A stretch of DNA of 64,000 nucleotides from Bacteroidia bacterium (GTDB taxonomy: Bacteria > Bacteroidota > Bacteroidia > JABEUT01), in NCBI GenBank assembly GCA_035485295.1, contig DATHOD010000174.1, forward strand, positions 3,704-67,703, written 5' to 3'. Below are positions 18,491-53,303 of this stretch, in pieces. Position 1 is the stretch's first letter, and each line of letters opens with the position of its first letter. Under the pieces are notes generated by a model that was given only the letters and a program-made list of their open reading frames with translations, had not been told where the DNA came from and made no database searches. Both the position numbers and the translations under genes were made by a program.

Positions 18491-19223
18491 ATCAACATAC
18501 CAGCTTAAGGCTTTTCAGACTGTTGACGATCTCAACCAATCTGCTGCAAAACTTATTATAGAAATTGCAAATAAAGCTATTGCTGAAAGAGGGAAGTTTT
18601 CTATTTCACTTTCTGGTGGACAAACACCTATGGAATTATATTCACTCTTAGCGCAAACTCCTTTTTGTGAAGAACTTCCATGGAAGAATACAAGTGTTTT
18701 CTGGTGTGACGAACGTTGTGTTCCTGAAACAGACGTTAAGAATAATGCCCATCAGGCAAAATCAGTTCTTCTCGATAAGGTGAATATTCCCATATCTAAT
18801 ATCCATTCAGTTCAAGTGAATCTATCGCCTGCTGCTGCAGCCATTGAGTATGAAAAAGAAATAAGAAATTATTTCAGGGAAGAACCTATATGCTTCGATC
18901 TAATTCTACTTGGAGTAGGAGAGAATGGACATACAGCTTCTTTATTTCATGGTACAAAAGTAATAGATGAACATGCCGAAGGAGTAAGAGAAGTATATAT
19001 TGAAGATGAAAATATGTCTCGGATTACCATGACAGCAGCATTGATAAATAGAGCCCATAACATCCTTTTCCTGGTAACAGGAAAAAAGAAGGCAGAAATA
19101 ATGCAAGCAATATTCTCTGCTTCTGCATTGCCTGATAAGTACCCTGCGCAATTAATCAAACCTAGTAACGGAGAATTATTTTGGTTTGTTGATCAGGCAG
19201 CTGCGGCGCTTATTAGCAAATAA
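18480..19223 (+). CDS. pgl: 6-phosphogluconolactonase
   Basis: [11 protein letters not shown] and [11 protein letters not shown] motifs of the DevB/Pgl family. Confidence 0.85.
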
Positions 19224-27940: not shown

Positions 27941-29595
27941 ACTGCGTTTTCTTTAATGCTTAAAGCAGTATTGACAATATCTGTAGCTTCTTTGATGATC
28001 TGTCTTAAGTGAGATCTTTCTAAAAAGCTTTCTGCATATATTTTATAAATATCCTCCGTTCCTGAAGGGCGTGCTGCAAACCAGCCATTCTCTGTACCCA
28101 CTTTCACACCACCAATCGAGGCGTTATTAGCAGGTGCAGTAGTAAATATTTTTTTTATTTCTTCTCCCGCTAAATCTTTGTGTGTGATCTGTTCAGAAGA
28201 AAGCGTTCTCAGTTTTTCTTTTTCCTGAGGTGTTGCTTTAGTTTCAATACGTTCGTAAATAGGGGTACCAAGTTCTTTTGTGAGTTCATTATAGAGCATA
28301 CCCGGGTCGCGGCCCATTTTTGCAGTCATTTCTGCTGATAGTAATGCAGGTATAAATCCATCCTTATCTGTTGTCCATACACTTCCATCTAACCGGGAAA
28401 ACGATGCACCAGCGCTTTCTTCTCCTCCAAAGCAAAGCGATGAGTTAAGCAAACCATCTACAAACCACTTAAAGCCAACCGGAACCTCATAAAGCTGCCT
28501 TCCAAATTTTGCCGCAATACGGTCTATCAGTTGGGTGGTAACAACCGTTTTACCTACTGCAGCTGTTTTATTCCACTTAGGGCGATTTTGAAGCAGGTAT
28601 GAAATGGCAACAGATAAATAATTGTTAGGATTTAAAAGTCCTTCACTTCTTGTAATAATTCCATGCCTATCATGGTCTGTATCACAGGCAAAAGAAATAT
28701 CAAAACGGTCTTTCATTTTGATTAACCTTTGCATAGCATAGGAAGAAGAGGGATCCATCCGAATCTGCCCATCCCAATCCCTTGTCATGAAACCGAAAGT
28801 AGGATCGACTGTTTTATTTACAACTGTTAAGTCTAATTTGTATCGTTCAGCAATGGGCTCCCAATAATGAACTCCGGCACCACCCAGAGGGTCAACACCA
28901 ATACTAATATTTGAATTACGAATTACATCCATATCGATAATATTACCAAGGTCATTAACATATGAATTCAAATAGTCGTAGTAGTGCGTTGTAGATAAGC
29001 GAAGTGCTTTGTCAAATGAAATCCTTTTTACAGATTGAAGATTATTCTCAAGAAATTCATTTGCTTTTGATTCAATCCAGTCTGTTACCTCTGTTCCTGC
29101 AGGCCCGCCATTGGGAGGATTGTATTTAAACCCACCATCATCAGGCGGATTGTGTGAAGGTGTAATTACTATACCATCGGCCATGCCTGTACTACGCCTC
29201 TGATTATATTTTAAAATAGCATGTGAAATAACAGGAGTAGGGGTGAATTCATCATCTTCAGTGATCATTACCTCTACATTATTTGCAGCCAATATTTCCA
29301 TTGTAGTGGCAAAGGCAGGTGCTGAAAGCGCGTGGGTATCGAAGCCCAAATATAACGGGCCATCAATCTTTTGTTCTTTACGGTATAAGCAAATGGCTTG
29401 TGTAATAGCCACAATATGATTTTCATTAAATGAATTTGTGAATGAAGACCCTCTATGCCCGGAAGTTCCGAACACGATACGTTCAGCCGAAACAGTTGGA
29501 TCAGGTTTTCCAGTATAATATGCAGATACAAGCCTTGGTATGTTTACCAATATCTCCGGTATAGCCGGTTTGCCTGCAAAAGGACTCACTATCAT
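27937..29595 (-). CDS. pgm: phosphoglucomutase (alpha-D-glucose phosphate-specific)
   Basis: Active-site loop TPSHNPPDDGGFKYNPPNGGPA; metal site FACDTDHDR. Confidence 0.9.
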   Translation of the reverse strand: MIVSPFAGKPAIPEILVNIPRLVSAYYTGKPDPTVSAERIVFGTSGHRGSSFTNSFNENHIVAITQAICLYRKEQKIDGPLYLGFDTHALSAPAFATTMEILAANNVEVMITEDDEFTPTPVISHAILKYNQRRSTGMADGIVITPSHNPPDDGGFKYNPPNGGPAGTEVTDWIESKANEFLENNLQSVKRISFDKALRLSTTHYYDYLNSYVNDLGNIIDMDVIRNSNISIGVDPLGGAGVHYWEPIAERYKLDLTVVNKTVDPTFGFMTRDWDGQIRMDPSSSYAMQRLIKMKDRFDISFACDTDHDRHGIITRSEGLLNPNNYLSVAISYLLQNRPKWNKTAAVGKTVVTTQLIDRIAAKFGRQLYEVPVGFKWFVDGLLNSSLCFGGEESAGASFSRLDGSVWTTDKDGFIPALLSAEMTAKMGRDPGMLYNELTKELGTPIYERIETKATPQEKEKLRTLSSEQITHKDLAGEEIKKIFTTAPANNASIGGVKVGTENGWFAARPSGTEDIYKIYAESFLERSHLRQIIKEATDIVNTALSIKENAV

Positions 29596-29597
29596 AT

Positions 29598-30074
29598 TTA
29601 AATTGCGTTTCGCGTACTTTCTAGTTCAGCTACTTTAGCCAAACGCCTGGTATGTTTTTCTGTATTCCTAAACTTTGCTTCAAGAAATATCTTAGTCAAT
29701 TCCCAGCCAAGGGCCAAATCAATCACCCTGCCACCCAGGCATATCATATTCATGTCGTCGTCTTCAACACCTTGTTGTGCTGAAAACTTTTCATGGATAA
29801 GGCTCGCTCTTATACCTGTAACTTTATTTGCTGCAATACAAGCTCCAACACCACTTCCACAAACAGCAATACCTTTAAGTACATCACCTGTAGCAATTGC
29901 CCTTGCAAGTGGAATCACGTAATCAGGATAATCATCATCAGGGTGTAAGCCACTAGCACCAAAATCAATTGTCTGGTAATCGGTTTCATTTAGCTTTTTT
30001 ACTAAATATTCTTTCAATTCAAATCCTGCGTGATCTGCCGCAATTCCAATTTTAAATTTCCCAATACTATTCAT
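29598..30074 (-). CDS. rpiB: ribose-5-phosphate isomerase B
   Basis: [17 protein letters not shown]…CGSGVG, typical RpiB/LacAB. Confidence 0.9.
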
Positions 30075-32157
30075 TACTATTCCTTTTTAATAAGGCCTGA
30101 GCTTGCTTGCATATATTTTCAACTGTAAATCCTTTTTTATCCATCATGGTTTTTCCGGGAGCCGAAGCTCCGAATGTGTCGATACCTATTACTATTCCTT
30201 TATCGCCTGTATATTTATGCCAGCCTTGTGTAACTCCGGCTTCTATAGCAATTCTTTTATTAATCGAAGGAGGAAGTATTATATCTCGGTATTCAGTAGC
30301 CTGTGCTTCGAATAGTTCCCAGCTTGGCATTGAAACAATTCGTGCAGGAATATTATGCTTCATTAATTCTTGTTGCGCATCTACTATCAAACCGACTTCA
30401 GAACCGCTTGCTATTAATATCAATTCTGGTTTAACATCAGGAATATCTGATAATATATAAGCCCCGAAGCGAAGACCTTCCGCAGAAGCATATTGTTTCC
30501 TGTCAACAGTGGGTACGTCCTGTCGGGAAAGAATTAATGCCACCGGCGCTTTTTTTGATTCAATAGCAATGCGCCATGCCTCGGCAGTTTCATTTGCATC
30601 ACAGGGCCGTATTACAATCAAACGAGGGATTGCCCTAAGACATGCAAGATGTTCTATGGGTTGATGGGTTGGCCCGTCTTCACCCATAGCGATACTATCG
30701 TGGGTGAAAACAAAAACTGTATTTAATTCCATTAATGCCGCAAGTCGAATAGCAGGGCGCATATAATCTGAGAAAGTCAGGAATGTGGCACAGAATGGGA
30801 TAATACCTCCATGAGCAGCCATTCCATTTGAAATTGATGCCATTCCATGCTCACGAACGCCAAACTGTAAATTGCGGCCGGCATAGCTCCATCCACCTCC
30901 CGCTGACCCTTGAAGGTCACCTACGGCCATGGAAGGGTTTTCAAAGTTTCCGGCATCTATAAGTTCTGTGAAAGTAGATGTGTTAAGGTCGGCAGAGCCA
31001 CCAATGAAGCCAGGGAGTAAAGGACTAAAAGCCTGCATTATTTTGCCAGAAGCCACGCGTGTAGCTATGCCCTTGCTATCAGCCGGAAATTTAGGAATAG
31101 TGGCATCCAAGTAAATAGAAGGCTCTCCTTTTATTAGACTGAATAGCTCTTGAGCAAGTTCAGGATATTTTTGTTCGTATTCTGAGAAGTGCTTTTTCCA
31201 TTTATCTTCTAAATGCTTTCCGGTTTCAACTGACTTGCGAAAGTTAATCAGGGCATCTTTAGGAATCAGAAATGATGGGGTCAAGGGCCAGCCAAGTTTT
31301 GCCTTGGTTAACTTTACTTCTTCTTCTCCTAACGGAGAACCATGAGCAGCGCATGTATCTTGTTTGTTAGGTGAGCCGTAACCAATATGAGTTCTTACTA
31401 TTATCAGCGAAGGACGCTCTTTTTCTTCCTGAGCAGCTTTAATCGCTTTCTCAATGGATTCTAGGTCATTACCATCCTCAATAGATGCCACGTGCCATCC
31501 GTATGCTTCAAATCGCTTCGCATGATCTTCAGTAAATGTAACGGGAGTTGCAGAGGCAAGTGTAATATGATTATTGTCGTACAGATAAATCAGTTTGCCA
31601 AGTTTTAAATGACCAGCAAGCGGAGCTGCTTCTGCAGATACCCCTTCCATTAGGTCACCATCGCTTACTAAGCCATAGGTGTAATGATTGATGATTTCAA
31701 AACTGGGCTTATTGTATCGTGCAGCCAAATATGCTTCGGCAATTGCCATACCCACACCATTTGCAAATCCCTGGCCGAGAGGACCGGTTGTTGTTTCAAC
31801 GCCGGGCGTTATTCCACGCTCAGGATGGCCAGGTGTTTTACTTCCCCATTGCCGAAACTGTTTAATATCATCAAGTGATAGATCATATCCAGTCAAGTGC
31901 AACAAGCTATATAACAGCATTGAACCATGGCCCGCAGACAATACAAACCTATCGCGGTTAAACCAATGTGGATTTGTTGGATTATGCTGCAGGAACCTTG
32001 TCCATAGAACGTATGCCATGGGTGCAGCACCTAACGGCAAGCCAGGGTGGCCGCTATTAGCCTTTTGAACAGCATCTATTGACAGAAAACGTATTGTATT
32101 TACAGAAAGGGTATCCAATTCCAATTGAGGATGAATTGGTTCACTTAGTTTGTTCAT
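30067..32157 (-). CDS. tkt: transketolase
   Basis: [27 protein letters not shown]…GDGDLMEG…[15 protein letters not shown]. Confidence 0.95.
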
Positions 32158-32176: not shown

Positions 32177-32244
32177 GTAAAATAGCCGCTATTTGCCAAA
32201 GCAAGTGTTACACAAGTTTTAGAATATATTATACAATTCACACA
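32177..32244 (-). promoter_or_regulatory. bipartite module (degenerate box) upstream of the tkt-rpiB-pgm-cyclic glucan synthase operon
   Basis: Minus-strand reading gives TGTGTGAATTGTATAA, 21 bp, TGTAACA, N23, CTATTTTAC. The distal 16-mer differs at 2 positions from TGTGTGAATAGTGTAA, found at 33111 and 54721. Confidence 0.45.
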
Positions 32245-32496: not shown

Positions 32497-32931
32497 ATGC
32501 CAAAGCTTATATATCCTAAGAACTATAAATCAAGTTCATATTATTACAACCCTAAAATTGAGGTAAGGAAATCTAAAATTCATGGGATGGGTGTTTTTGC
32601 TAAAAAGCCTATTAAAAAAAATGAAGTATTGGAAGAGGATCACTATATTATTTTAAAAGGGAACTTCAATAAATTACCCAAGCTTTTGCAAGAATATGTT
32701 TTTGCCTGGACAAAGGAGTTACCGGAGTATAAATCAAAAGCCGCCGTATTACTTGGAACAGGGCCCATTTATAACTCTTCACCTAAGCCAAATGCTGACT
32801 GGCTAACGAGTGTAAAGAGGAATCGATTCATATTCCACGCCACAAAAAACATTAAGGCTGGCGAAGAGATAATGATAGACTACGGCCCTGAATATTGGGA
32901 AAGTAGAAACAAGGACTATAATAAAGGTTAG
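32497..32931 (+). CDS. SET-domain protein (putative protein-lysine methyltransferase)
   Basis: 144 aa with SET C-terminal signature NSSPKPN…RFIFHATKNIKAGEEIMIDYG (NHSxxPN and EELxxDY-like). Confidence 0.65.
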   Translation: MPKLIYPKNYKSSSYYYNPKIEVRKSKIHGMGVFAKKPIKKNEVLEEDHYIILKGNFNKLPKLLQEYVFAWTKELPEYKSKAAVLLGTGPIYNSSPKPNADWLTSVKRNRFIFHATKNIKAGEEIMIDYGPEYWESRNKDYNKG

Positions 32932-32966
32932 TTTGATAAATTAATAGTAGTGAAAAACTTCCTAAA

Positions 32967-32995
32967 CCCCTTGCTTAGTAAGGGGTTTATTGTTT
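32967..32995 (+). terminator. terminator hairpin; second copy of the repeated terminator element
   Basis: CCCCTTGC, loop TTA, GTAAGGGG, then TTTATTGTTT. Flank GTGAAAAACTTCCTAAA parallels GTGAAAACCCTAATAAAA at 9734. Confidence 0.6.
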
Positions 32996-33110
32996 ATGGC
33001 CTCAACAATTATAATATATCACCAAAACCTTAGAATTTCCTTCCCTGAGTGTTATGCGTTCATTACCATTCAAGAATATTCTTCAATTCTGGTAAAATAA
33101 GCGTAACTTG

Positions 33111-33175
33111 TGTGAATAGTGTAAGTTAATTCCATCGCAGTATAACACTTCCTTGTTATAAGCTTATCACTTTTG
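33111..33175 (+). promoter_or_regulatory. bipartite module for the small gene at 33213
   Basis: TGTGTGAATAGTGTAAGT (distal TGTAAGT 33120-33126), TATAACA 33141-33147 (21 bp apart), N22, CTTTTG 33170-33175. Confidence 0.55.
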
Positions 33176-33212
33176 TGGTTGTAAAATCTATACAACTATC
33201 AAGTTTGGAGTC

Positions 33213-33458
33213 ATGAAAAAACAGGAATTAAACCAATTTATAAGCGACATAGTAATTTGCTTCTATTCAAAAAGCATAAAGATTAGCCTGGCCTCATTAA
33301 ATTCAATCCTAAAAGACAAGGATGCTGACTTTAGTAGTAAAAAGAAACTAGGAAGGCATGTGGCCGAGGCCTATAAGTATTGGGAGAAGAAAGACCCTGT
33401 AGTACACCATGCAATAGCTTATGTGTTTTCAGATAAGCATGGAAAGTATGTCTATTAA
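33213..33458 (+). CDS. hypothetical 81-aa protein (module-associated)
   Basis: ORF with the module upstream; no recognisable domain. Confidence 0.4.
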   Translation: MKKQELNQFISDIVICFYSKSIKISLASLNSILKDKDADFSSKKKLGRHVAEAYKYWEKKDPVVHHAIAYVFSDKHGKYVY

Positions 33459-33478
33459 ATGAAAGGAAGTGTGAATTA

Positions 33479-33534
33479 TGTAACTATTCCCCAAAATGAT
33501 GTAATAGTTAACAAAACAGAATAAAGGAATTTTG
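33479..33534 (+). promoter_or_regulatory. bipartite module in front of the AraC-family regulator gene
   Basis: TGTAACT 33479-33485, TGTAATA 33500-33506 (21 bp apart), N23, TTTTG 33530-33534. Confidence 0.55.
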
Positions 33535-33579
33535 ATTAGTACGAGTAAATAAAATAATTTGAAGTTACACATTAAGTAT

Positions 33580-34140
33580 ATGGTAAGTAACCGCTGCAAG
33601 ATGGCGGTGAAAGAAGAATTAAATAAACTTGGCCTCCATTATGTAATTGTAGATTTAGGTGAAGTTGAAGTAATGGAAGACCTTTCTGTGTTGGAACTGG
33701 AACAGTTGAGAGCTGGTCTACAGGTATCGGGGCTTGAATTAATGGATGATAAGAAAGGTGTGATGATTGAAAAAATTAAAAACACCATTATTGAAATGAT
33801 ACATCATGCAGATGAGGCTATGAAAGTCAATTTATCGGACTACCTGAGCGAGAAACTGAAACACGACTATACTTACCTGGCAAACTTGTTTTCTGAAGTG
33901 CAAGGGATTACTATAGCCCAGTTTGTTGCTGCTCATAAAATAGAGAGGATTAAAGAACTGATAATGTATGATGAATTAAATATTACTGAAATTGCCTGGA
34001 AGATGAATTACAGCAGTGTAGCCCATTTATCTAATCAATTTAAGAAAGCAACCGGCTTTACTCCATCACAGTTTAAGCAATTGAAGGATAAGAAGAGAAT
34101 GCCAATTGAAGAAATTGGAAATTTAAACGGTACGAAATAA
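33580..34140 (+). CDS. AraC/XylS-family transcriptional regulator (short N-terminal domain plus C-terminal HTH_18)
   Basis: C-terminal two-HTH AraC signature …LANLFSEVQGITIAQFVAAHKIERIKELIM…ITEIAWKMNYSSVAHLSNQFKKATGFTPSQFKQ. The track ORF starts at a TTG (33559); ATG at 33580 or 33601 is more likely. Confidence 0.8.
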   Translation: MVSNRCKMAVKEELNKLGLHYVIVDLGEVEVMEDLSVLELEQLRAGLQVSGLELMDDKKGVMIEKIKNTIIEMIHHADEAMKVNLSDYLSEKLKHDYTYLANLFSEVQGITIAQFVAAHKIERIKELIMYDELNITEIAWKMNYSSVAHLSNQFKKATGFTPSQFKQLKDKKRMPIEEIGNLNGTK

Positions 34141-34159
34141 CCCCAATTTCGAAACTAGA

Positions 34160-36379
34160 ATGGTTAAAACAAATAAAACAGATAAAGAAGCATTACTCGA
34201 TGCCCAAAAGGAACTTGTCTCGCAAAAGCAAGAGAAAGACAAGTTGCTTGCAGAGTTAGATAGTGCGAACAAAAAATTAGCCTTTCAGGATCAGGAGAAA
34301 GGAAAACGTGCGGCGGAGTTAGGTATTGCCAACAAGGAACTGGCCTTTCAAGACGGGGAGAAGGAGAAAAGGGCAGATGAATTAAGCATTGCTCATTCTA
34401 CAATATTAGCATCTCAATATGCCAGAAGTTTAATAGAAGCAAGTCTTGATCCGCTATTTACTATTAGCCCCGGAGGTAAGATTACTGATATGAATAATGC
34501 TTCAATAAACATTATAGAGTTATCGCGCGAGAAATTAATTGGCACAGACTTTTTTAAATATTTCACCGAACCCGATAAGGCTCGGAAAGGTTACCAGGAA
34601 GTCTTTGCAAAAGGTTTCGTGGCTGATTACCCTCTAACCATGATAGATGGGAAATTTACAGATGTATTGTTTAATGGCTCTGTTTATAAAGACGAAAATG
34701 GTCATGTGGTAGGTGCCGTTGTAGTGGCAAGGGATATTACTGACCAAAAAAGAATTGCTACAGAACTTACAGTAGCGAAAGTTGCTGCCGAATTGGCAAC
34801 TGCAATTGCTGAAGAAGCAAAGGGTAAAGCTGAAAATGCTACCCGTATTGCTGAAGATGCTGTGAAATCGAAACAGCAGTTCTTGTCGAATATGAGTCAC
34901 GAGATACGAACACCTATGAATGCCATTATAGGGTTTACTAAGGTGGTATTAAAGACAGAACTTACTGCAAAACAAAAGGAATATTTAATGGCTATTAAAA
35001 TGAGTGGTGATGCTCTTATTGTGCTCATAAATGATATTCTTGATCTTGCAAAGGTTGATGCGGGTAAAATGACATTTGAACAAACACCCTTTAAAATGGC
35101 ATTATCTATTTCTGCCATGCTGCATTTGTTTGAAACCAAAATTCAGGAGAAGAACCTAATTTTAGTTAAAGAATACGATAGCAAGATACCCGAAGTGCTT
35201 GTGGGTGACCCTGTACGCTTACACCAGATAATTTTAAACCTTGTTAGCAATGCAGTGAAGTTTACAACCAAAGGAAAGATAACAGTAAGTGTGAAATTGC
35301 TTAACGAAGATGAAGACAAAGTCACTATAAAGTTTGCTGTAACAGATACAGGCATAGGAATACCTACAAATAAAATAGGTAAGATCTTCGAGAACTTTCA
35401 GCAGGCATCGAGTGGCACATCAAGGTTATACGGCGGTACCGGTTTAGGCCTTGCAATAGTAAAGCAGTTAGTAGAACCGCAAGGTGGAACTATAAAAGTA
35501 GAAAGCAAGATAAATGAAGGTTCTACCTTTAGTTTTATACTCGATTTTCAGAAAACAAAAGAAAAGGCAGAAGCCGAGACTGATATTTTAGAAGTTGACC
35601 CGGAAATTAGAAACATTAAGGTATTAGTGGTTGAAGATATAGCACTTAATCAATTACTAATGAAAACACTGTTAGATGATTTTGGTTTTGAACGTGATAT
35701 TGCAGGAAATGGAAAAGTAGCAATAGAGAAACTAAAGGCAAAGACATATGATATTATACTTATGGATTTGCAAATGCCTGAAATGAATGGATTTGAGACC
35801 ACAGAATACATTCGCAATACCTTGAATTCTAAAATACCAATTATTGCATTAACCGCCGATGTAACAACCGTTGACCTGGCTAAATGCAAGGTAGTAGGCA
35901 TGAATGACTATATAGCAAAACCGGTTGATGAAAGGTTGTTATACAGTAAAATAGTAGGCCTGGTTAAGAAGCCGCCACATATAAAGGCTACCGAAGTAGT
36001 AGATGACCATAAGAAAGTAAAATGTATTGACCTGGCCTACCTGATACATCGTACAAAGTCTAACCCTAAGTTAATGATGGAAATGATATCACTTTACCTG
36101 GAACAGACTCCTCCTTTAATTTTAGCCATGAAACAAAGTTTACGTGATAAAGACTGGCATGCTCTGTATTCCGCAGCGCATAAAATGATCCCTTCGTTCC
36201 TAATTATGGGTATAAGCTCAGATTTTGAGAATATGGCAAAGAAAGTACAGGAATATGCCAGTACACAAAAGCAAACGGACGGAATACCTGACCTGGTAAT
36301 GCAACTTGAAAATGTATGTGAACAGGCATGTAAAGAATTACAAATAGAGTTTAATACAATTAAAAGCACAACTGTATGA
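34160..36379 (+). CDS. hybrid sensor histidine kinase / response regulator with C-terminal Hpt domain
   Basis: N-terminal triple coiled-coil repeat (ELxxANKxLAFQDxEKxKRAxEL, three times). PAS; HisKA H-box MSHEIRTPMNAIIGF; HATPase (GGTGLGLAIV). REC (VLVVEDIALNQ…ILMDLQMPEMNG). Hpt (YSAAHKMIPSF). Confidence 0.9.
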   Translation: MVKTNKTDKEALLDAQKELVSQKQEKDKLLAELDSANKKLAFQDQEKGKRAAELGIANKELAFQDGEKEKRADELSIAHSTILASQYARSLIEASLDPLFTISPGGKITDMNNASINIIELSREKLIGTDFFKYFTEPDKARKGYQEVFAKGFVADYPLTMIDGKFTDVLFNGSVYKDENGHVVGAVVVARDITDQKRIATELTVAKVAAELATAIAEEAKGKAENATRIAEDAVKSKQQFLSNMSHEIRTPMNAIIGFTKVVLKTELTAKQKEYLMAIKMSGDALIVLINDILDLAKVDAGKMTFEQTPFKMALSISAMLHLFETKIQEKNLILVKEYDSKIPEVLVGDPVRLHQIILNLVSNAVKFTTKGKITVSVKLLNEDEDKVTIKFAVTDTGIGIPTNKIGKIFENFQQASSGTSRLYGGTGLGLAIVKQLVEPQGGTIKVESKINEGSTFSFILDFQKTKEKAEAETDILEVDPEIRNIKVLVVEDIALNQLLMKTLLDDFGFERDIAGNGKVAIEKLKAKTYDIILMDLQMPEMNGFETTEYIRNTLNSKIPIIALTADVTTVDLAKCKVVGMNDYIAKPVDERLLYSKIVGLVKKPPHIKATEVVDDHKKVKCIDLAYLIHRTKSNPKLMMEMISLYLEQTPPLILAMKQSLRDKDWHALYSAAHKMIPSFLIMGISSDFENMAKKVQEYASTQKQTDGIPDLVMQLENVCEQACKELQIEFNTIKSTTV

Positions 36380-36804
36380 AGAATAAAATAAAACTCTTCC
36401 TTGTAGACGATGACGCAGTATTTTTAAAATCATTGGAGATTGAATTCATGGAACATGCAGACTTTGTAATTGAAACCTACGCTACCGGGGAATTATGCAT
36501 GGAAAATCTATCACACAACCCTGACGTAATTATATTAGATTACCATCTTGATGGTATTGATAAGAATGCAATGAATGGCCTGGCAACATTAGACAAAATA
36601 AAGGCATATAACCAGGATATACCAGTTGTTATGCTATCCTCACAAGATAAAATTGACGTTGCCGTAAACTGTATGCACCATAGAGCATTTGATTATGTGG
36701 TGAAGAGTGAAACTGCATTTATGCGCCTTCAAAAGATCATTACAACTATTTTTAGCTACCAGAAGATGCAAAAGACCTTGAACTGGTATATGGAGCGGAT
36801 GTAA
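36376..36804 (+). CDS. single-domain response regulator (CheY-like receiver)
   Basis: LFLVDDDAVFLKSL…VIILDYHLDG…MLSS: acidic pocket, phospho-Asp and T/S positions present. The ATGA overlaps the HK stop. Confidence 0.85.
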   Translation: MKNKIKLFLVDDDAVFLKSLEIEFMEHADFVIETYATGELCMENLSHNPDVIILDYHLDGIDKNAMNGLATLDKIKAYNQDIPVVMLSSQDKIDVAVNCMHHRAFDYVVKSETAFMRLQKIITTIFSYQKMQKTLNWYMERM

Positions 36805-36824
36805 TTCCCTTTATTACTCATGGC

Positions 36825-37214
36825 ATGAGGCTTACACTATTTCTATTACTTTCCTGTACTTCAACCATTGGATATTCCCAATCAAATGGTCTTATTGGTA
36901 AGTGGAAGTTACGGCGTATTGACGCAGATAACAGAACCCTTAGGCCAGTTCCGGAAGTAAAAGAATACTTTCTTACAATATCCCAAACCAGCATTGCTTA
37001 TAATTTAGATGTGAATGATTGCTGGGGAAGTATAGTATCAATTAATGATTCAGTTCTAGTATTAAGTAATGCAGGCTGCGCACAGGTTTGTTGCGACGGC
37101 CGTGTAGATGCTATAGCCCTTTACATAAACTACAGTGGCAGATATACCATTGTGCATGATAGTCTGCTAATTATAAGTAATGATAAAGGGAAGTTCTATT
37201 TAAAGAGAGAGTAG
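36825..37214 (+). CDS. lipocalin-like secreted protein
   Basis: Signal peptide then GLIGKWKLRRID, the GKWKL start typical of Bacteroidota lipocalin-like domains. Confidence 0.4.
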   Translation: MRLTLFLLLSCTSTIGYSQSNGLIGKWKLRRIDADNRTLRPVPEVKEYFLTISQTSIAYNLDVNDCWGSIVSINDSVLVLSNAGCAQVCCDGRVDAIALYINYSGRYTIVHDSLLIISNDKGKFYLKRE

Positions 37215-37261
37215 GGTAGTGCACCCTATAAGTAACCCGGGAAAGTTTATTGCAAAAAAAA

Positions 37262-37289
37262 GGGGCAGGTTTTAATCCAGCCCTGCCCC
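37262..37289. terminator. bidirectional terminator hairpin
   Basis: GGGGCAGG, 12-nt loop, CCTGCCCC, flanked by an A8 tract (T8 on the minus strand). Confidence 0.55.
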
Positions 37290-37309
37290 TTACACATAAA
37301 GGTTATAAA

Positions 37310-38152
37310 TTACTTTATAACCACCACGAGGTATTTACTTTTACTCCAGAAAGCATCGGCATTGGTAATATCCAATGAGGCACTAACTGTATTTGTTACG
37401 GTATATGAATCGGTGGGATGTTCTGTAATTACTTTTACAAATCCTGCATCTAATGCTACATGTTGCAATACGGTCTTATCTGCCTTAATGAAAGCTGATG
37501 CACTTATATTATTGTTAAGTACAGCTTCACGGCCTATGCCAATAAAGCCACCTTCTTTAGTTATAATGCCTTCATGTTTTAATGTTTTCATTGTTCCAAT
37601 AGCGTAATAAACGGTATTCATATCTGCCTGCATCATACCAATCTTTTCACGCTCTCTAACAGCTACATTAATACTGTCGTTAAGTTGAGCAAGAGTAATT
37701 TGTAAGGTGTTGTTGGTTTCAACAAGTGTTTCCTGAAGGCCAACTATCTCAGTATCCTTATAGTTCAATTCTACACCCAAGCGTTGTACCATGTCTTCCA
37801 ATGAGGCATTCTTTTTATCGCTTTTCTTTAACCTCACTTCCAATGCAGCTAATGCTTTATTATCGGCAATAATCATCCTGCCTAGTAATTTTACATCTTC
37901 TACTATGGTGCCTGTACTTGCTTTGGCCTCGCTGTTTACTTTCAAAATATGAGCCACAGTTTTAACACTGTCAAGGTTAGCCTGTATCCGGTCAATTGAA
38001 TTAACAAAATCGGTTAGGGCTGAATCTTTCTGCTGAACGACTACCATAAGGGAGTCCTGGGTTTTCTGGTTTTGTGTTTGCAACTCCTGCCCCTGGTGGC
38101 CGCAAGCCGAGAGAAAGAATATTGCAATAGGAATTAGAATTGTACTTTTCAT
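37310..38152 (-). CDS. coiled-coil lipoprotein, function unknown
   Basis: Lipobox FFLSAC; long Q/L/E-rich coiled coils. Confidence 0.5.
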   Translation of the reverse strand: MKSTILIPIAIFFLSACGHQGQELQTQNQKTQDSLMVVVQQKDSALTDFVNSIDRIQANLDSVKTVAHILKVNSEAKASTGTIVEDVKLLGRMIIADNKALAALEVRLKKSDKKNASLEDMVQRLGVELNYKDTEIVGLQETLVETNNTLQITLAQLNDSINVAVREREKIGMMQADMNTVYYAIGTMKTLKHEGIITKEGGFIGIGREAVLNNNISASAFIKADKTVLQHVALDAGFVKVITEHPTDSYTVTNTVSASLDITNADAFWSKSKYLVVVIK

Positions 38153-38250
38153 GATGTGTTTTAGTTTGTTTTAAATTAATTATTAGGACAGAAGAACATT
38201 GATAAGAGGTCGGACGAAGTGATAATACATACTATATATAATGAGCATGA

Positions 38251-38520
38251 TCAAATCGTTGTTTCGTTATTCGAAGAACTTTGCTTCATATCTTCACGTT
38301 TAGCTTCACTAGCCATGTTAAGATATTCCTTGGCCAGCATTGCGCTTTCAGCTGCCTTTTCATAACTTCCTTGCTTAAGATAATTAGCGGCCTTGAAATG
38401 ATGAGTGGCGGCAGCCAGCAAATGCGAAGCTGTTGTTTTATGGGTTTCAATTATGGCCTGACTGTCTATATAAGGCAGGTGGTTGGTGTTATCTTCTATT
38501 AGTGCCATAGGATTCTTCAT
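38251..38520 (-). CDS. hypothetical 89-aa protein (module-associated). Start moved to the second ATG
   Basis: MKNPMALIEDNTN…; a module sits immediately upstream, which would place the promoter inside the longer track ORF. Confidence 0.45.
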   Translation of the reverse strand: MKNPMALIEDNTNHLPYIDSQAIIETHKTTASHLLAAATHHFKAANYLKQGSYEKAAESAMLAKEYLNMASEAKREDMKQSSSNNETTI

Positions 38521-38541
38521 TTTAGTTGTGTTTATCGGATG

Positions 38542-38597
38542 CAAAGATGCCTCCATAAAACCTGGCGGGCATTACATCTATCTATCAAAAGGTTACA
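38542..38597 (-). promoter_or_regulatory. bipartite module for the 38251 gene (minus strand)
   Basis: On the plus strand: CAAAG 38542-38546, CATTACA 38570-38576, GGTTACA 38591-38597; 21 and 23 nt spacings. Confidence 0.55.
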
Positions 38598-38650
38598 TCT
38601 TTCCTATTTGGGCAGAAGAATATAATCGTAAGCGCAAATCAAGATAAATG

Positions 38651-38706
38651 TGTAAGGTTATTCTGTGTATGTGTAACACTCTAAAGTGTTGTATGCACAA
38701 TCTTTG
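38651..38706 (+). promoter_or_regulatory. bipartite module for the SHOCT/Usp operon
   Basis: TGTAAGG 38651-38657, TGTAACA 38672-38678, N23, CTTTG 38702-38706. The spacer carries the palindrome AACACTCTAAAGTGTT. Confidence 0.55.
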
Positions 38707-38739: not shown

Positions 38740-38988
38740 ATGATTGACGGTAGCTATTTTTTGGGCATGCATATGGTTTGGTGGTTTGTATGGGCTGCAA
38801 TTATGTTTTGGATTTTTGCCACTCCATATAATATTCCTGGGCAACGGAAGAGAAAAGACCAAGACACTTCACTTGATATTTTGCAGAAGCGATTTGCATC
38901 AGGGCAGTTTTCAGCCGAAGAATACAAACGAAGGAAAGATACACTTAAAGAACATTTCATACTGGTAAACCAGATTACATATAAATAG
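38740..38988 (+). CDS. SHOCT-domain membrane protein
   Basis: N-terminal TM helix (W-rich); C-terminal LQKRFASGQFSAEEYKRRKDTL matches the SHOCT short C-terminal domain. Confidence 0.6.
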   Translation: MIDGSYFLGMHMVWWFVWAAIMFWIFATPYNIPGQRKRKDQDTSLDILQKRFASGQFSAEEYKRRKDTLKEHFILVNQITYK

Positions 38989-39076: not shown

Positions 39077-40024
39077 ATGAATAAAACAGAAATAAAACGG
39101 ATACTTATTCCGACCGATTTTTCCGATACGTCACTTAAAGCTATTGATCATGCCATATTTCTGGCAAAGCTTAAAAATGCAGAAGTAACATTATTGCATG
39201 TAATGGATGAAACTTCAAGGCAAGAAAACATAGCCGCAACCCCATTGAATTATGCTGAATATGTTGGAGCAGTTGAAATGCTGGCTCAAAGATATTCTGC
39301 CTTGGAAGAAAAGTGGGAAGAACATATCAATACATTAATGGCCCACCTGGTAAATAAGATACGTCATGAAGGAGTAGAGGAAGTAAATTCTATAATTGAA
39401 ACAGGTGATGTATATGTTGTAATTTGTGAGCAGGCAAAAAAATTAAACGCTGATATAATTGTTATGGGTACGCATGGCGTTAAAGGCTTCAGGGAATTTA
39501 CAGTTGGAAGTAACACTTATAGCGTAGTAAAACATGCTGAGTGCCCTGTTCTTAGTATTCAGAAGAAAGTTCCAATTGTCGCTTTTGCTAACATTCTTGT
39601 CCCTTTTAGCGATAAACCCCATTCAAGGGAAAGTGTAGACTATGCTGTAAGTATAGCTAAGGACTATGGAGCAACTATTCATTTATTGGGAATAGACACT
39701 GAGAAAACCGAAATGCACTTTGATAAAATAAAGAAAGAGGCAAACCAGATTATGGAGATAGCTGAGAAAGATGGTATAAAATGTACAAAAACGGTTATGC
39801 CTGCCTCGGATATAACAGAATTGATAATGAAGGAAGCTAAAATGAGTAATGCTGATTTAATAGTACTTGTATCAGATATGGATAAGATGAAAATGAGTGA
39901 ATATTTCACGGGGCCAGTTATACAGCAAATAGTGAATCACTCACCTATTCCGGTTATTAGTATAAAGCCACAGCCTAAGCACTATAGCCCTGTTGCTAAT
40001 TATCCTGAGCGGGTTACCTTCTAA
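39077..40024 (+). CDS. universal stress protein (tandem UspA domains)
   Basis: ILIPTDFSDTSLKAIDHAIFLAKL…LLHV…IVMGTHG and a second Usp repeat; 315 aa. Confidence 0.85.
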   Translation: MNKTEIKRILIPTDFSDTSLKAIDHAIFLAKLKNAEVTLLHVMDETSRQENIAATPLNYAEYVGAVEMLAQRYSALEEKWEEHINTLMAHLVNKIRHEGVEEVNSIIETGDVYVVICEQAKKLNADIIVMGTHGVKGFREFTVGSNTYSVVKHAECPVLSIQKKVPIVAFANILVPFSDKPHSRESVDYAVSIAKDYGATIHLLGIDTEKTEMHFDKIKKEANQIMEIAEKDGIKCTKTVMPASDITELIMKEAKMSNADLIVLVSDMDKMKMSEYFTGPVIQQIVNHSPIPVISIKPQPKHYSPVANYPERVTF

Positions 40025-40051
40025 ATAGATCTAAGCTTGGGATGTGTTATA

Positions 40052-40107
40052 TGTAAAACACTACTATGCAAATGTAACACTTCACCAACTGAAGTGCATC
40101 ACTTTTG
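40052..40107 (+). promoter_or_regulatory. bipartite module for the 40148 gene
   Basis: TGTAAAA 40052-40058, TGTAACA 40073-40079, N22, CTTTTG 40102-40107, then GTGGAAATTCATTCAC 40115-40130. Confidence 0.55.
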
Positions 40108-40147
40108 TTCCGTTGTGGAAATTCATTCACAGCTTAAAACAATAAAT

Positions 40148-40603
40148 ATGAAAAAGAGTAGATTGATAATTGGTGGCTTGCTGCTGATTCTTGCAGGAGT
40201 ATTACATGCACAAGTTGGCGTAAATATAGTAGTTGGAACTCCGCCAGCATGGGGCCCGGCTGAATCATCGGGAGTAAGGTTTTATTACCTGCCTGAAATT
40301 GAAGCATATTATGATGTAAACACATCAAATTATATCTATATGTCTGGAGGAAGATGGATACATGCTTCAAACTTACCACCTGCATATAGAAATTATGATT
40401 TATACGGAGGGTATAAGGTTATGCTTAACGGTTATCATGGCGAAAGGCCTTATGATAATTTCAGGGAACATCAAAGAAGCTACCCAAGAGGATACAATAA
40501 AGGGCATGGACAAAAGACATACGGAGAAAGACCAGGCAATAGAGGCGAACATGGAGAAGGTAATCATGGGCATGATGATAAAGACCATGGTGATCATAAA
40601 TAA
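40148..40603 (+). CDS. secreted Gly/His-rich small protein
   Basis: Signal peptide MKKSRLIIGGLLLILAGVLHAQ. C-terminal GHGQKTYGERPGNRGEHGEGNHGHDDKDHGDHK. The track start at 40037 would swallow the promoter module. Confidence 0.5.
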   Translation: MKKSRLIIGGLLLILAGVLHAQVGVNIVVGTPPAWGPAESSGVRFYYLPEIEAYYDVNTSNYIYMSGGRWIHASNLPPAYRNYDLYGGYKVMLNGYHGERPYDNFREHQRSYPRGYNKGHGQKTYGERPGNRGEHGEGNHGHDDKDHGDHK

Positions 40604-40898: not shown

Positions 40899-41561
40899 TT
40901 AGCTGATGTAAGCTTTTTGGTAGGTGAGTATCTTTTTAGAAAGCCTATAGCATCCTGAAGCAAAGAAAGGCGCACACAATACATCAATAGTATAGTGAAC
41001 ATGTTGTATTAATACAAGGATACCAATAGCTATTGCTGCTAAAAGCATGTAAACTCTGTCAGGTTTTTTTGACGAGCATAAATAGAATAGGAAAAGAGTA
41101 GCTGTATGGCCGGAATAAAACAGATCCCTGGTAATTGTTCTTGAACAATACATCATATCGCATACTGGGTCTTTAAGGTCTATCAAACCTATTGGTGCAC
41201 GTAACTCTGTTATGCTTATGGTTATTATACGTGTAATTAGTATAAGCACAAAACCAATAAGGTAAGTAATGAACATATTGGGATTAGTCAGGGATCGAAA
41301 GAAGAATAAGAGCATTACACTCGACATAAGGAAAGTAATTGGTACAGATGCATCCATTGCGGGAAGTACATTTAGTATCCAGTCGTTTAATACAATGCCA
41401 CCCGATCGATTTTGGTTATAACCTAAGAAGAAATAGGTAAGTACTAGCATAATTACCAGTGCGACCGAACCCAAAATCAGGTTCTTAACAAATACTTTAT
41501 TATGTACAGCACTATACCAATTTCGTTTAATTGGTAATGTATTCGTGTCATTTAAACTCAT
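40899..41561 (-). CDS. PAP2_C / sphingomyelin-synthase-like lipid phosphotransferase family membrane protein
   Basis: Six predicted TM helices with D3-like FYSGHTATLF and D4-like HVHYTIDVLCAPFF motifs (SGHT and HYTxDV of the SMS/IPC-synthase family). Confidence 0.5.
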   Translation of the reverse strand: MSLNDTNTLPIKRNWYSAVHNKVFVKNLILGSVALVIMLVLTYFFLGYNQNRSGGIVLNDWILNVLPAMDASVPITFLMSSVMLLFFFRSLTNPNMFITYLIGFVLILITRIITISITELRAPIGLIDLKDPVCDMMYCSRTITRDLFYSGHTATLFLFYLCSSKKPDRVYMLLAAIAIGILVLIQHVHYTIDVLCAPFFASGCYRLSKKILTYQKAYIS

Positions 41562-41675
41562 TGTAGTTTTTTTAAATTTAAAGTACCTACAAAGGTCTAT
41601 TCTTCAAGTCATGTAGATATTATACTTGAATGGGGAAATATTATATAAGTCACACATTAAACCTGATAAGATATG

Positions 41676-41731
41676 TGTAAGCTTATTCTATATCTGTGTA
41701 ATGCTTTGCCGGACAAATGCCTCCACCTTTG
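41676..41731 (+). promoter_or_regulatory. bipartite module for the 41770 gene
   Basis: TGTAAGC 41676-41682, TGTAATG 41697-41703, N23, CTTTG 41727-41731, then CGTAATTATTTATTAATAA. Confidence 0.55.
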
Positions 41732-41769
41732 CATCGTAATTATTTATTAATAACTCAAACAACAACAAT

Positions 41770-41973
41770 ATGAAAACTAATGAAACCCTAAGCAAAAAGG
41801 AACAATCAGGCGATTCTTCCAAGAAACAATCCAATAGTTCATCTTCAGAGCAATCAACCAACACTCCTAAGAAACAATCAAGTGGAAATTCATCTGAGAA
41901 GTCTAATGACCCATCTAAGAAGCAGTCGAATAACAGCTCATCTGAAAAGGCGGGCCACTCTTCCAAAAAATAA
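41770..41973 (+). CDS. Ser/Lys-rich low-complexity hydrophilic protein (hydrophilin/LEA-like)
   Basis: 67 aa of imperfect SSKKQSN repeats. Chosen over the antisense ORF 41688..41966 because the module and a terminator flank it in the plus orientation. Confidence 0.45.
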   Translation: MKTNETLSKKEQSGDSSKKQSNSSSSEQSTNTPKKQSSGNSSEKSNDPSKKQSNNSSSEKAGHSSKK

Positions 41974-43241: not shown

Positions 43242-43487
43242 ATGTTACAAGTACACCCAGTAAGAACAGAAAAAGAACTGAATGAGGATATTTTAAGAAT
43301 AACACTATTGATACAGGATAAATATCCTGAGCTTTCAAAGTTTATAGGTGAAATGCCTGTTACTGTTCCCAATGCTAATGATACAGAATCAACTATTAAG
43401 AATCTGGAGAGTTACTATCATTCATTAAACTCATTATTATCGAACTATAACACTAGTCACGCAGAAGGGCTAAAGCTTAACGTGTGA
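43242..43487 (+). CDS. hypothetical 81-aa protein
   Basis: ORF only. Confidence 0.3.
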   Translation: MLQVHPVRTEKELNEDILRITLLIQDKYPELSKFIGEMPVTVPNANDTESTIKNLESYYHSLNSLLSNYNTSHAEGLKLNV

Positions 43488-43491
43488 TTAA

Positions 43492-43547
43492 TGTAAGGTT
43501 TTTCAATAAAAGTGTAATATCTAGAACAAGTTGAATATTCACCTTTG
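43492..43547 (+). promoter_or_regulatory. bipartite module for the 43574 gene
   Basis: TGTAAGG 43492-43498, TGTAATA 43513-43519 (21 bp apart), N23, CTTTG 43543-43547. Confidence 0.55.
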
Positions 43548-43573: not shown

Positions 43574-43825
43574 ATGAAACTCAAAACATTAGCTATTGCA
43601 GGAATTGCAATTGCTGCCTTAACCTTAAGTGTTACAGTTACTGCCAATGCACAGGAAAACAACAAGACGACCACAACTAAAAATTCATCTGAAACGAATG
43701 GCGACAAAACAGTAAAGAAGTCGAGCAAGAAAACGGTTACAAAGAAACAAAGTAAGGATGGCGATAAGAAGTCAACCGACACCAAGACCAGCACAGACAC
43801 TAAAGTTGAAACAAACAAGAAATAG
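43574..43825 (+). CDS. secreted Lys/Thr-rich low-complexity small protein
   Basis: Signal peptide MKLKTLAIAGIAIAALTLSVTVTANAQ, then a KKS/TDTK-rich tail. Preferred over the antisense ORF 43552..43818. Confidence 0.45.
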   Translation: MKLKTLAIAGIAIAALTLSVTVTANAQENNKTTTTKNSSETNGDKTVKKSSKKTVTKKQSKDGDKKSTDTKTSTDTKVETNKK

Positions 43826-43878: not shown

Positions 43879-43917
43879 ATTTTCTATTACACCATCAGTG
43901 AGAAATTTGCAGATATG

Positions 43918-43973
43918 TGTAAACCTTTCCATTCAAACTGTAACAGCCACAGGGCTCAATCCACTGACTTTTG
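43918..43973 (+). promoter_or_regulatory. bipartite module for the 44011 gene
   Basis: TGTAAAC 43918-43924, TGTAACA 43939-43945, N22, CTTTTG 43968-43973, then CGTAATATTTATTAATAA. Confidence 0.55.
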
Positions 43974-44010
43974 CCGCGTAATATTTATTAATAATCTAAA
44001 ACAAAATATC

Positions 44011-46263: not shown

Positions 46264-46357
46264 GTAATAAAGTAGTAATCAACTTTTATGACAGGGCTGA
46301 TATAGAAATATATCGGCCCTGCTTCTTTTAAGTGAACTGGCTATTTATGAGAAGGAT

Positions 46358-46412
46358 GTAACATATTCCAATTGTTGTATAACATCCAAAGGACAGGGCA
46401 CATCTAATTTTG
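46358..46412 (+). promoter_or_regulatory. bipartite module (variant) for the 46452 OmpA-family gene
   Basis: TGTAACA 46358-46364, TGTATAACA 46376-46384, N23, TTTTG 46408-46412. Confidence 0.45.
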
Positions 46413-52231: not shown

Positions 52232-52236
52232 TTATT

Positions 52237-52292
52237 TGTAAGATTGGAGCATAATAGTGTAACACTTCTAAGAGTAGCTATTTCCAGCTTTG
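52237..52292 (+). promoter_or_regulatory. bipartite module for the 52334 gene
   Basis: TGTAAGA 52237-52243, TGTAACA 52258-52264 (21 bp apart), N23, CTTTG 52288-52292, then palindrome ATCGCAAATGCGAT before the ATG. Confidence 0.55.
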
Positions 52293-52894: not shown

Positions 52895-52912
52895 TCGAAT
52901 AATACAAAACAT

Positions 52913-52958
52913 TCTAACAATTGTATAATAATGCTAAGTGCGATGGTATCCAACTTTG
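52913..52958 (+). promoter_or_regulatory. bipartite module (variant) for the 52992 gene
   Basis: TGTATAATA 52923-52931, N22, CTTTG 52954-52958. Distal half-site weak. Confidence 0.35.
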
Positions 52959-53246: not shown

Positions 53247-53247
53247 A

Positions 53248-53303
53248 TGTAACATATACATAAGTATGTGTAACACTCTACCGGTTGAACTGCCACATCT
53301 TTG
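53248..53303 (+). promoter_or_regulatory. bipartite module for the 53343 CsbD-like gene
   Basis: TGTAACA 53248-53254, TGTAACA 53269-53275 (21 bp apart), N23, CTTTG 53299-53303, then CGTAATAATTTAATAATAC. Confidence 0.6.

Follow-up and report, generated by a model that had tools for sequence, protein, structure and literature searches.

An araC operon with a phosphorelay as candidate switch for a conserved promoter module in Bacteroidota

Which protein acts on a promoter signature that an araC gene shares with the stress and envelope genes around it, and could it be the product of that araC gene itself? The locus lies in a 64,000-nucleotide stretch of DNA from the metagenome-assembled genome of a Bacteroidia bacterium (GTDB lineage JABEUT01; GenBank assembly GCA_035485295.1, contig DATHOD010000174.1, positions 3,704 to 67,703), hereafter the window, which has a G+C content of 38%. 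The regulator, here called AraC-A (193 amino acids; 33559-34140, + strand), is encoded ahead of a soluble hybrid histidine kinase and a single-domain response regulator. Since araC shares its promoter signature with about twenty nearby stress and envelope genes, AraC-A appears to be the best candidate for the switch of a still uncharacterised general stress programme. In our reading, to which we assign a probability of roughly 0.6, AraC-A would bind this signature (the module described below), activate transcription from it and autoregulate its own gene; it seems to us equally probable that a regulon extending through the phylum Bacteroidota is controlled from this operon.

The promoter module before araC and its copies

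A repeat module before araC had been noticed in a sequence-only reading of this DNA, and its positions were confirmed: the distal repeat TGTAACT (33479-33485) and the proximal repeat TGTAATA (33500-33506) are 21 bp apart, start to start, and after a further 23 nt stands TTTTG (33530-33534), all on the + strand. An upstream element, GTGTGAAT (33469-33476, + strand), was recognised from its sequence and its conservation in related promoters. The TTTTG is part of a −7 box, GAATTTTG (33527-33534, + strand; a TAnnTTTG variant), which predicts a transcription start near 33539, and puts the proximal repeat at about −39 to −33, where the −33 element (TTTG) of Bacteroidota promoters would be expected.

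This module is real, conserved and located in promoters. Alignment of the window copies gave the formula GTGTGAAT-N2-TGTAAC-N15-TGTAAC-N21-CAnCTTTG, in which the last element is the Bacteroidota −7 box, and the consensus gtGAat-aTGTAAc-N15-ATGTAACACt-N-CAcCTTTG, with identity extending well past both pentamers. With at most one mismatch allowed, TGTAA-N16-TGTAA occurs 40 times in the window compared with 10.5 ± 3.2 times in shuffled sequence, and none of 100 shuffles reached 40. A weight matrix built from the aligned window copies and spanning 66 bp identified 22 in-register copies (17 on the + strand and 5 on the − strand), every one of them 76-105 nt 5' of the start codon of an open reading frame (ORF). 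In 1.25 Mb of related DNA, 258 sites scored above 16 bits, while shuffled DNA gives none above 14 bits. The third element, GTGTGAAT, lies 10 bp, or one helical turn, upstream of the distal TGTAA and is conserved as strongly as the core, both in 57 araC promoters and in 201 other module promoters from related loci; across the phylum, the consensus reads aA-GTGTGAAT-TATGTAACTTaTt-N-AGTTaTGTAAC-N-cACCTTTG. A palindromic reading of the repeats (GTTAyrTAAC, GAAT...ATTC) was ruled out, as the flanks lack conservation at the level of the phylum.

The sites of XylS and AraC are direct repeats, 21 bp from one another, and overlap the −35 element. The earlier comparison of the module with this AraC/XylS geometry held up: its repeats are 21 bp apart with the proximal one at −33, and a precedent exists in Bacteroides, where direct-repeat motifs spaced 21 bp apart on average are predicted for all 16 AraC-type regulators of the hybrid two-component system (HTCS) class studied by Ravcheev et al. 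(PMC3878776). The −7 box of Bacteroidota is TAnnTTTG, at −12 to −5 (PMC9723704). Module promoters keep this box, in the variant CAnCTTTG instead of the canonical TAnnTTTG, at a strictly constant distance from the proximal TGTAAC. Since their usual −33 TTTG is missing and the proximal TGTAAC stands in its place, the module has, to judge from its letters, the anatomy of a class II, activator-dependent promoter. A sigma-70 promoter scan of 32900-38700 yielded matches not above those in shuffles, as expected for Bacteroidota.

AraC-A and the conservation of its operon

AraC-A was analysed with Pfam, an AlphaFold2 model, Foldseek and start-codon conservation. The gene, previously read as 33580-34140, is assigned its start at TTG 33559 and not at ATG 33580, with a product of 193 amino acids, because the 21 nt before that ATG (TTG AAG TTA CAC ATT AAG TAT, for MKLHIKY) are kept in every ortholog with synonymous changes and the seven extra codons open with ATG in several orthologs; they also form beta-strand 1 of the model. 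Pfam matches to HTH_18 (58.5 bits, cut-off 33.6) and HTH_AraC (36.6 bits, cut-off 26.6) bore out the AraC/XylS-type identity proposed before. All 21 NCBIfam matches to AraC-A were far below their cut-offs, with no named equivalog passing, and they are confined to the DNA-binding domain, apart from two weak ones (AraC, RhaS) whose alignments reach further N-terminal. By its DNA-binding domain AraC-A belongs to the AraC/XylS family; it belongs to no named equivalog.

The AlphaFold2 model (predicted local distance difference test score 84) consists of an N-domain (residues 1-62), a linker helix (65-82) and a seven-helix AraC domain with a double helix-turn-helix (HTH) (85-180). AraT, GadX, YesN, AdpA, MarA and SoxS superpose on the DNA-binding domain in Foldseek (template modelling (TM) score 0.64-0.83 by target), and the N-domain superposes on Atx1, Atox1, GolB and CopZ-like proteins (TM score 0.61-0.70 by target; root-mean-square deviation 2.4-3.0 Å over about 65 residues). 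The N-domain is predicted to run beta-alpha-beta-beta-alpha-beta (strands 2-6, 28-30, 35-38 and 60-62; helices 11-23 and 44-56), has a weak CopZ match in NCBIfam (E 0.005) and, as modelled, has an HMA/ferredoxin-like fold. The HMA motif MxCxxC is not present in its beta1-alpha1 loop, which reads M-V-S-N-R-C, that is, SxxC with invariant Ser10 and Cys13. Neither Pfam nor the model revealed a REC domain in the 193 residues. An 85-residue N-terminal domain too short for a receiver or a sugar-binding domain had been proposed; REC and cupin are indeed both absent, but the start and the nature of the domain had been misjudged, as it is HMA-like, of about 62 residues, and followed by the linker helix. 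Invariant among 33 orthologs are Ser10, Arg12, Cys13, His82, His83 and Asp85. Across these 33 orthologs and the paralogs, the second HTH (YSSVAHLSNQFKK) does not vary and the first hardly does, and such invariant recognition helices fit with an invariant DNA motif.

The family is large and its architecture uniform. More than 8000 relatives of AraC-A were found at E ≤ 1e-10, and the top 120 are 73-100% identical and about 180-200 amino acids long. Clustering at 50% gave 494 clusters at E ≤ 1e-30, nearly all with the same full-length architecture. The same AraC protein is encoded on three other metagenome contigs, one of which has the identical gene order. We compared 80 genome loci from Flavobacteriales, Chitinophagales, Cytophagales, Saprospirales and Bacteroidales, whose AraC proteins are 72-80% identical to that of the window. 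Of the 63 loci whose flanks are long enough, 58 (92%) have the genes for AraC, kinase and receiver in synteny on one strand, with 67% identity for the kinase and 70% for the receiver; counted over all 80 loci, the kinase is syntenic in 66-68 and the receiver in 65-68. In 57 of 80 loci the 260 nt before the araC ortholog hold a strict module, and a relaxed pattern finds one in 60 of 79. The three-gene operon with a module in front, as described for the window, is conserved across Bacteroidota orders. Site density in the related loci is 0.97 per kb just upstream of araC, 0 within the operon and 0.1-0.4 per kb around it. Loci in which araC has no module still carry other modules, at 0.135 per kb versus 0.172 per kb, so that this co-loss test was uninformative. 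One ortholog (L011, CALMMI010000603.1; 76% identical), with no upstream module, is on a contig binned as Ignavibacteria, which may reflect a binning error or horizontal transfer.

No second recognisable DNA-binding regulator was seen in the scanned parts of the window, for which the statement that AraC is the only one holds. Clustering of the ORFs from the 80 loci likewise revealed no recurring LytTR, OmpR-type, sigma-factor or other DNA-binding family, and CheR/CheB recur in 12 loci.

Metagenome contigs were also scanned from the motif alone, with GTGTGAATNNTGTAAC-N15-TGTAA and independently of araC. This yielded 139 sites, spread over 120 contigs (665 kb); 132 of them keep the −7 box in register, and the genes downstream belong to the same families (CsbD-like, OmpA/barrel, ice-binding-like, cupin). 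In 18 of the 120 contigs a gene of the AraC-A family lay a few kb away at most; among homologs of window proteins, only CsbD was commoner. Genes of this family adjoin modules far more often than expected of a few-copy gene. Three of the 18 are orthologs (71-72% identity) and most others are a second form, paralog B (60-67%), whose gene typically ends 10-35 nt before a module driving a cupin gene. Paralog B has the architecture and recognition helices of AraC-A and differs from it at the linker (HH to HY) and the C-terminus; the window holds araC-A only. A conserved cassette of araC-B, module and small cupin gene was observed in L198, L203, L155, L169, L118, L178 and L007 (8714-9740), and in some genome loci, for example L007, it stands directly upstream of araC-A. 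The proposal of AraC as sole master regulator thus stands in part: the association of the family with modules supports it, but paralog B is also tied to modules, and the two may act as a pair.

The same scan gives an idea of regulon size. The strict motif-first pattern is matched by 14 of 80 araC-A promoters versus 20 of 201 other module promoters, and one of the 139 motif-first sites is an araC-A promoter. From these rates the regulon probably comprises on the order of 100 promoters per genome, a very rough figure that rests on that single araC-A event; a local cluster of 21 genes, as first suggested, would be too narrow a view.

The genes downstream of araC follow closely. The kinase gene (34160-36379, + strand; 739 amino acids) begins 19 nt after araC, where 20 nt had been counted before; the receiver gene (36376-36804, + strand; 142 amino acids) overlaps it by 4 nt, as reported; and a small lipoprotein-like ORF (36825-37214, + strand; 129 amino acids) starts after another 20 nt and is probably co-transcribed. 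This last ORF lies outside the conserved unit: it has no Pfam or NCBIfam match and no homolog in the 80 related loci (absent from 80 of 80), and its former description as lipocalin-like is unsupported. A terminator scan of 32900-38700 found no + strand terminator-like site within the operon, and a strong hairpin at 32963-32989, after a SET-domain gene, sets the region apart from the genes upstream. The highest-scoring module of the window (50 bits; 33110-33175, + strand) precedes an 81-residue ORF (33213-33458) directly 5' of araC; no terminator stands between this ORF and araC, and transcription from that module may read through into araC. The ORF itself has only sub-threshold matches (DUF1374, AcrID1) and homologs in one or two related loci.

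The domains previously listed for the kinase were largely recovered. HisKA (69.4 bits), HATPase_c (104.8 bits), Response_reg (90.7 bits) and PAS pass their Pfam cut-offs, and the translation shows the SHEIRTP H-box and the ILMDLQMP Asp. The Hpt match is weak, at 17.1 bits and under the 24.6-bit cut-off; the full-length NCBIfam models of ArcB, TorS and EvgS align through this region (to residues 717-728), with a His in AAHKM. The kinase has no transmembrane segment or periplasmic domain. Three 21-residue coiled-coil repeats lie N-terminal to PAS; they had been called unusual, and yet orthologs carry more copies. Tandem Repeats Finder detected no DNA-level repeat at the 5' end of the gene, so that the repeat is seen in the protein only. 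The stand-alone protein is a REC domain by Pfam; its phospho-acceptor pocket is intact (DD, D, S and K residues present), and about 30 residues extend it at the C-terminus. No named NCBIfam equivalog passes for the kinase or the receiver. The operon is longer in 12 loci, most of them Flavobacterium, where it goes on to encode CheR, CheB and another kinase, some 1200 amino acids long (among these loci L018, L037, L044, L046-L048, L050, L062, L066, L072 and L075, 3-6 kb downstream of araC). CheR/CheB beside the operon hint at methylation of the coiled-coil repeat, and the repeated motif ANKELAFQNEEKEKRAAEL might be the substrate.

Proposed mechanism and rival explanations

That the AraC family of AraC-A binds the module is, in our judgement, quite likely. 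AraC-A would bind as a dimer, with one subunit on the distal composite site GTGTGAAT-N2-TGTAAC, whose two sub-elements, one helical turn apart, would serve the two HTHs of one AraC domain, and with the second subunit on the proximal TGTAAC 21 bp downstream. Bound there, 21 nt upstream of the −7 box CAnCTTTG, the proximal subunit would recruit sigma-A RNA polymerase in class II activation. AraC-A would in this way activate its own operon (positive autoregulation) and 21 other window promoters, with predicted targets encoding CsbD-like, YtxH, ferritin, Usp, Pmp3, OmpA/beta-barrel, ice-binding-like type IX secretion system (T9SS), PAP2 and AsmA/DUF748 proteins, pentose-phosphate enzymes and the glucan synthase. 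The HMA-like N-domain probably mediates dimerisation, contact with a partner, or both. The likely signal input is the PAS hybrid kinase (His-Asp-His) together with the single-domain receiver (final Asp), and the phosphorylated receiver would contact the N-domain or linker of AraC-A and switch it on or off. A link to phosphorelays is suggested by the nearest relatives of the DNA-binding domain, which are outputs of two-component systems (AraT, YesN, HTCS). Among relatives, a REC-DNA-binding-domain family of four members (P0250) is 56% identical to AraC-A from the linker helix onward, and fusions of the HMA-AraC protein were found with a receiver (P0129, 336 amino acids) and with PAS-HisKA-HATPase (P0123, 620 amino acids, Flavobacterium sp., partial). 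We infer binding, direction of control, phosphorelay coupling and inducing signal from sequence. On a larger scale, and only tentatively, the operon could be the missing general stress switch of Bacteroidota, working without an alternative sigma factor: kinase and receiver would feed an AraC activator, its N-domain a degenerate version of the metallochaperone fold, that drives about 100 promoters with a TGTAAC repeat in place of the −33 element, with CheR/CheB tuning in some lineages and paralog B as a second input.

Several observations weigh against this reading. About a quarter of the araC orthologs have no recognisable module directly upstream, and if araC were just the target of some other factor, a module before it would be equally expected; kinase and receiver, too, could be regulon outputs. 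The proximal repeat is without a GTGTGAAT-type partner element. The DNA specificity of AraC-type domains is not predictable from sequence, and, with recognition helices shared by paralog B, either protein may act at a given promoter. P0129 and P0123 are each a single sequence that could be a frameshift or gene-calling artefact, so they lend weak support.

One rival keeps AraC-A as the factor that binds and activates the module and makes the kinase and receiver co-expressed outputs or a feedback branch, with the signal sensed directly through the HMA-like domain, for example by redox or metal chemistry at Cys13 and the His82-His83-Asp85 patch. We consider this somewhat unlikely. The six residues invariant in 33 orthologs would suit such a sensor, as would a fold like that of the Atx1/CopZ metallochaperones with Cys13 in the metal-binding loop, yet the CxxC pair for HMA metal binding is absent and replaced by SxxC. 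Paralog B, which has no adjacent kinase or receiver and differs in the His patch (HH to HY), is in line with direct sensing, and so are the other REC and kinase genes that also lie behind modules; synteny of araC, kinase and receiver genes in 92% of informative loci at about 70% identity, however, argues for a tight functional unit, and fusions to REC occur among relatives of the DNA-binding domain. The binding factor might instead be unlinked, for example an OmpR/PhoB-type or LytTR-type response regulator recognising TGTGA/TGTAA, which would leave the araC operon as a regulon member and perhaps a second-tier regulator. This is a doubtful alternative: no such gene is conserved near modules in the 80 clustered genome loci, and the AraC family is present in 18 of 120 contigs, with araC-B upstream of a module in the arrangement of a regulator beside its target. 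It does, on the other hand, draw on the resemblance of TGTGA and TGTAA, 10 bp apart, to tandem half-sites of winged-helix response regulators and on the repeats of about 21-bp period that LytTR regulators use, and, with about 1 of 139 modules at an araC-A promoter, the regulon is dispersed and need not be run from the araC locus.

Two further explanations concern the promoter itself. A strictly fixed spacing from TGTAAC to the −7 box and the departure of CAnCTTTG from the canonical TAnnTTTG could mark a bipartite promoter read by an alternative sigma factor, TGTAAC being its −35-like and CTTTG its −10-like element. We find this hardly credible, as such a promoter has no need for an identical second element 21 bp upstream plus a third one 10 bp beyond, the downstream box is a sigma-A −7 box at the normal distance from the start codon, and no sigma-factor gene is conserved nearby. 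It is also very improbable that AraC-A, bound to the module, represses transcription or competes with the true activator (paralog B, for example), with relief by the phosphorelay. A site that overlaps the −33 region could occlude polymerase, and the two paralogs combine the same recognition helices with different linker and C-terminal motifs; but a module promoter, which lacks its own −33 element, should stay silent until activated, so repression would be pointless unless paralog B activates.

Module-driven genes and known systems

The content of the genes behind the modules is, by analogy, that of a general stress and envelope-protection regulon. On the − strand, modules lie before a lipoprotein gene (9954-10394; module 10433-10498, with degenerate repeats TGCAAC/TATAAC), an OmpA-family gene (10670-11458; 11491-11556), the gene at 38251-38556 (38542-38607), a PAP2 gene (40899-41561; 41590-41655, with TATAAT/TATAAT) and the operon tkt-rpiB-pgm-cyclic beta-1,2-glucan synthase (30067-32157 down to 19250; 32178-32243). 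This operon (19250-32157) encodes transketolase, RpiB, phosphoglucomutase and a GT2/GH94 cyclic beta-1,2-glucan synthase of 2896 amino acids. A + strand module (11611-11676) precedes a CsbD-like ORF (11714-11917), which is followed by pentose-phosphate genes (12028-19223) read by eye from the translations, with no profile scan, as tal/pgi-HAD-gnd-zwf-pgl (five genes). Modules before the glucan-synthase operon and before the pentose-phosphate genes suggest that osmoprotectant glucan synthesis is part of the regulon.

The remaining modules, all on the + strand, lie downstream of the araC operon. That at 38641-38706 precedes a SHOCT-like ORF (38740-38988) and then a tandem Usp gene (39077-40024), and that at 40042-40107 an exported protein (40148-40603). 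Modules at 41666-41731 and 43482-43547 stand before 41770-41973 and 43574-43825, respectively, followed by one (43908-43973) before a T9SS-sorted protein (44011-46263). Behind the module at 46347-46412 lies an outer membrane protein barrel-OmpA gene (46452-48482), and then genes for CsbD (48531), ferritin (48832), REC (49387) and DUF748/AsmA (49871). Next come a module (52227-52292) before a membrane-anchored REC-like gene (52334-52894), a degenerate one (52893-52958) before 52992-53246, and one (53238-53303) before a CsbD-like gene (53343-53633). Two ice-binding-like genes follow, 53934-54689 with its module at 53829-53894 and 54837-56459, for a T9SS protein, with its module at 54722-54787. 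Last are an outer membrane beta-barrel gene (56630-57268; module 56525-56590), a gene for a Pmp3-domain protein (57460-58041; 57349-57414) with YtxH (58258-58524) downstream, and a 39-residue His-rich lipoprotein ORF (58633-58752; 58527-58592) followed by an AI-2E transporter gene (58821-59924). Module-driven families that recur in the related loci are araC (59 loci), CsbD-like (27), ice-binding-like (26), small lipoprotein (13), OmpA/barrel (11), small kinase (11), receiver-like (9) and cupin (8), and also YtxH, Dps and BON.

Some of these genes and promoters have features of their own. The REC match of 52334-52894 (+ strand) is weak (32.5 bits) and the protein has a C-terminal transmembrane segment, a membrane-anchored receiver being unusual. 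The exported proteins of 58633-58752 and 40148-40603 (both + strand) have His/Asp-rich tails, HGGGDHHEGHHDDRH and HGEGNHGHDDKDHGDHK, and may bind metals. A leader element, TTTG-N4-GTnGnRGAAATTCATT, lies directly 3' of the −7 box in five module promoters (40104-40127, 53890-53913, 56587-56610, 57411-57434 and 58589-58612, + strand), all before exported or lipoprotein genes, with 7 matches compared with 0.56 expected; it may act as an operator or as an RNA element in the leader. A second leader type, TTTGCATCGTAATnATTTAtTAA, follows the −7 box in four other module promoters (41728-41750, 43970-43992, 53300-53322 and 11673-11695, + strand) with weak enrichment (9 matches versus 4.4 expected). An Rfam scan of the whole window brought only a tRNA (9660-9731) to the gathering score, so the module and the conserved leaders are not known RNA families. 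Elsewhere in the window, a SiaC-family phosphoprotein gene (6536-7477, − strand) adjoins a DUF6272 gene in what looks like a partner-switch pair, and the small lipoprotein family driven by modules in related loci also matches DUF6272, weakly.

In the full-text literature we found no description of the motif, of the regulator or of a general stress switch in Bacteroidota. The operon offers a concrete candidate: one regulator family (72-80% identical across orders), a searchable 66-bp promoter signature and a defined phosphorelay. If the reading is right, stress regulons could be read from the genome sequences of soil, freshwater, marine and some anaerobic Bacteroidota, a stress-inducible promoter would become available for genetic tools, and the HMA-fold domain with a separate receiver would be a new input architecture in the AraC family.

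Compared with known systems, the proposed mechanism is ordinary in kind, and the system is unusually well conserved and uncharacterised. AraC-A resembles the class II activators XylS, AraC and RhaS in its double HTH, in direct repeats 21 bp apart with the proximal one over the −35 equivalent, in probable autoregulation, and in a full site made of two sub-elements about 10 bp apart. It differs from them in having a 62-residue HMA/ferredoxin-like N-domain and not a cupin or sugar-binding domain, a Bacteroidota −33/−7 promoter, stress and envelope targets and not a catabolic pathway, and a phosphorelay in its operon. With the Bacteroides HTCS proteins it shares the combination of Bacteroidota phosphorelay proteins with an AraC-type output and direct repeats about 21 bp apart (PMC3878776), and an HTCS chain is among the best PDB sequence matches of its DNA-binding domain. 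An HTCS, however, is a single membrane polypeptide with periplasmic glycan sensor, histidine kinase, REC and AraC parts, whereas the araC locus encodes three separate soluble proteins, with a PAS sensor, no REC on AraC-A and no polysaccharide utilisation locus. The DNA-binding domain has its best matches, in structure and in sequence, in YesN and AraT (REC plus AraC; 6swi, 3lsg), but the receiver of AraC-A is a separate gene (36376-36804) and an HMA-like domain sits where REC would be. AraC-A is neither an HTCS nor a YesN-type regulator, as it does not have the architectures that define them.

A parallel for its control may be ExsA-ExsD, MxiE-IpgC and InvF-SicA, in which small AraC activators are set by a protein partner and not by a small ligand. 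Such partner control is the model proposed here for the receiver acting on AraC-A, although the partners of ExsA, MxiE and InvF are type III secretion chaperones or anti-activators with no phosphorelay, and outside the DNA-binding domain these proteins have no sequence relation to AraC-A. To our knowledge, Bacteroidota are without a stress sigma factor of the RpoS, sigma-B or EcfG type. The module-driven genes recall those of the general stress systems built on such factors, sigma-B (RsbK/RsbY in Bacillus cereus), PhyR-NepR-EcfG in Alphaproteobacteria and RpoS, with CsbD, YtxH, Dps/ferritin, Usp and envelope or osmoprotection genes, and with a hybrid kinase and a receiver upstream of an autoregulated transcription output. 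Where those systems employ an alternative sigma factor, this operon would rely on an AraC-type activator as its output, together with the housekeeping sigma factor.

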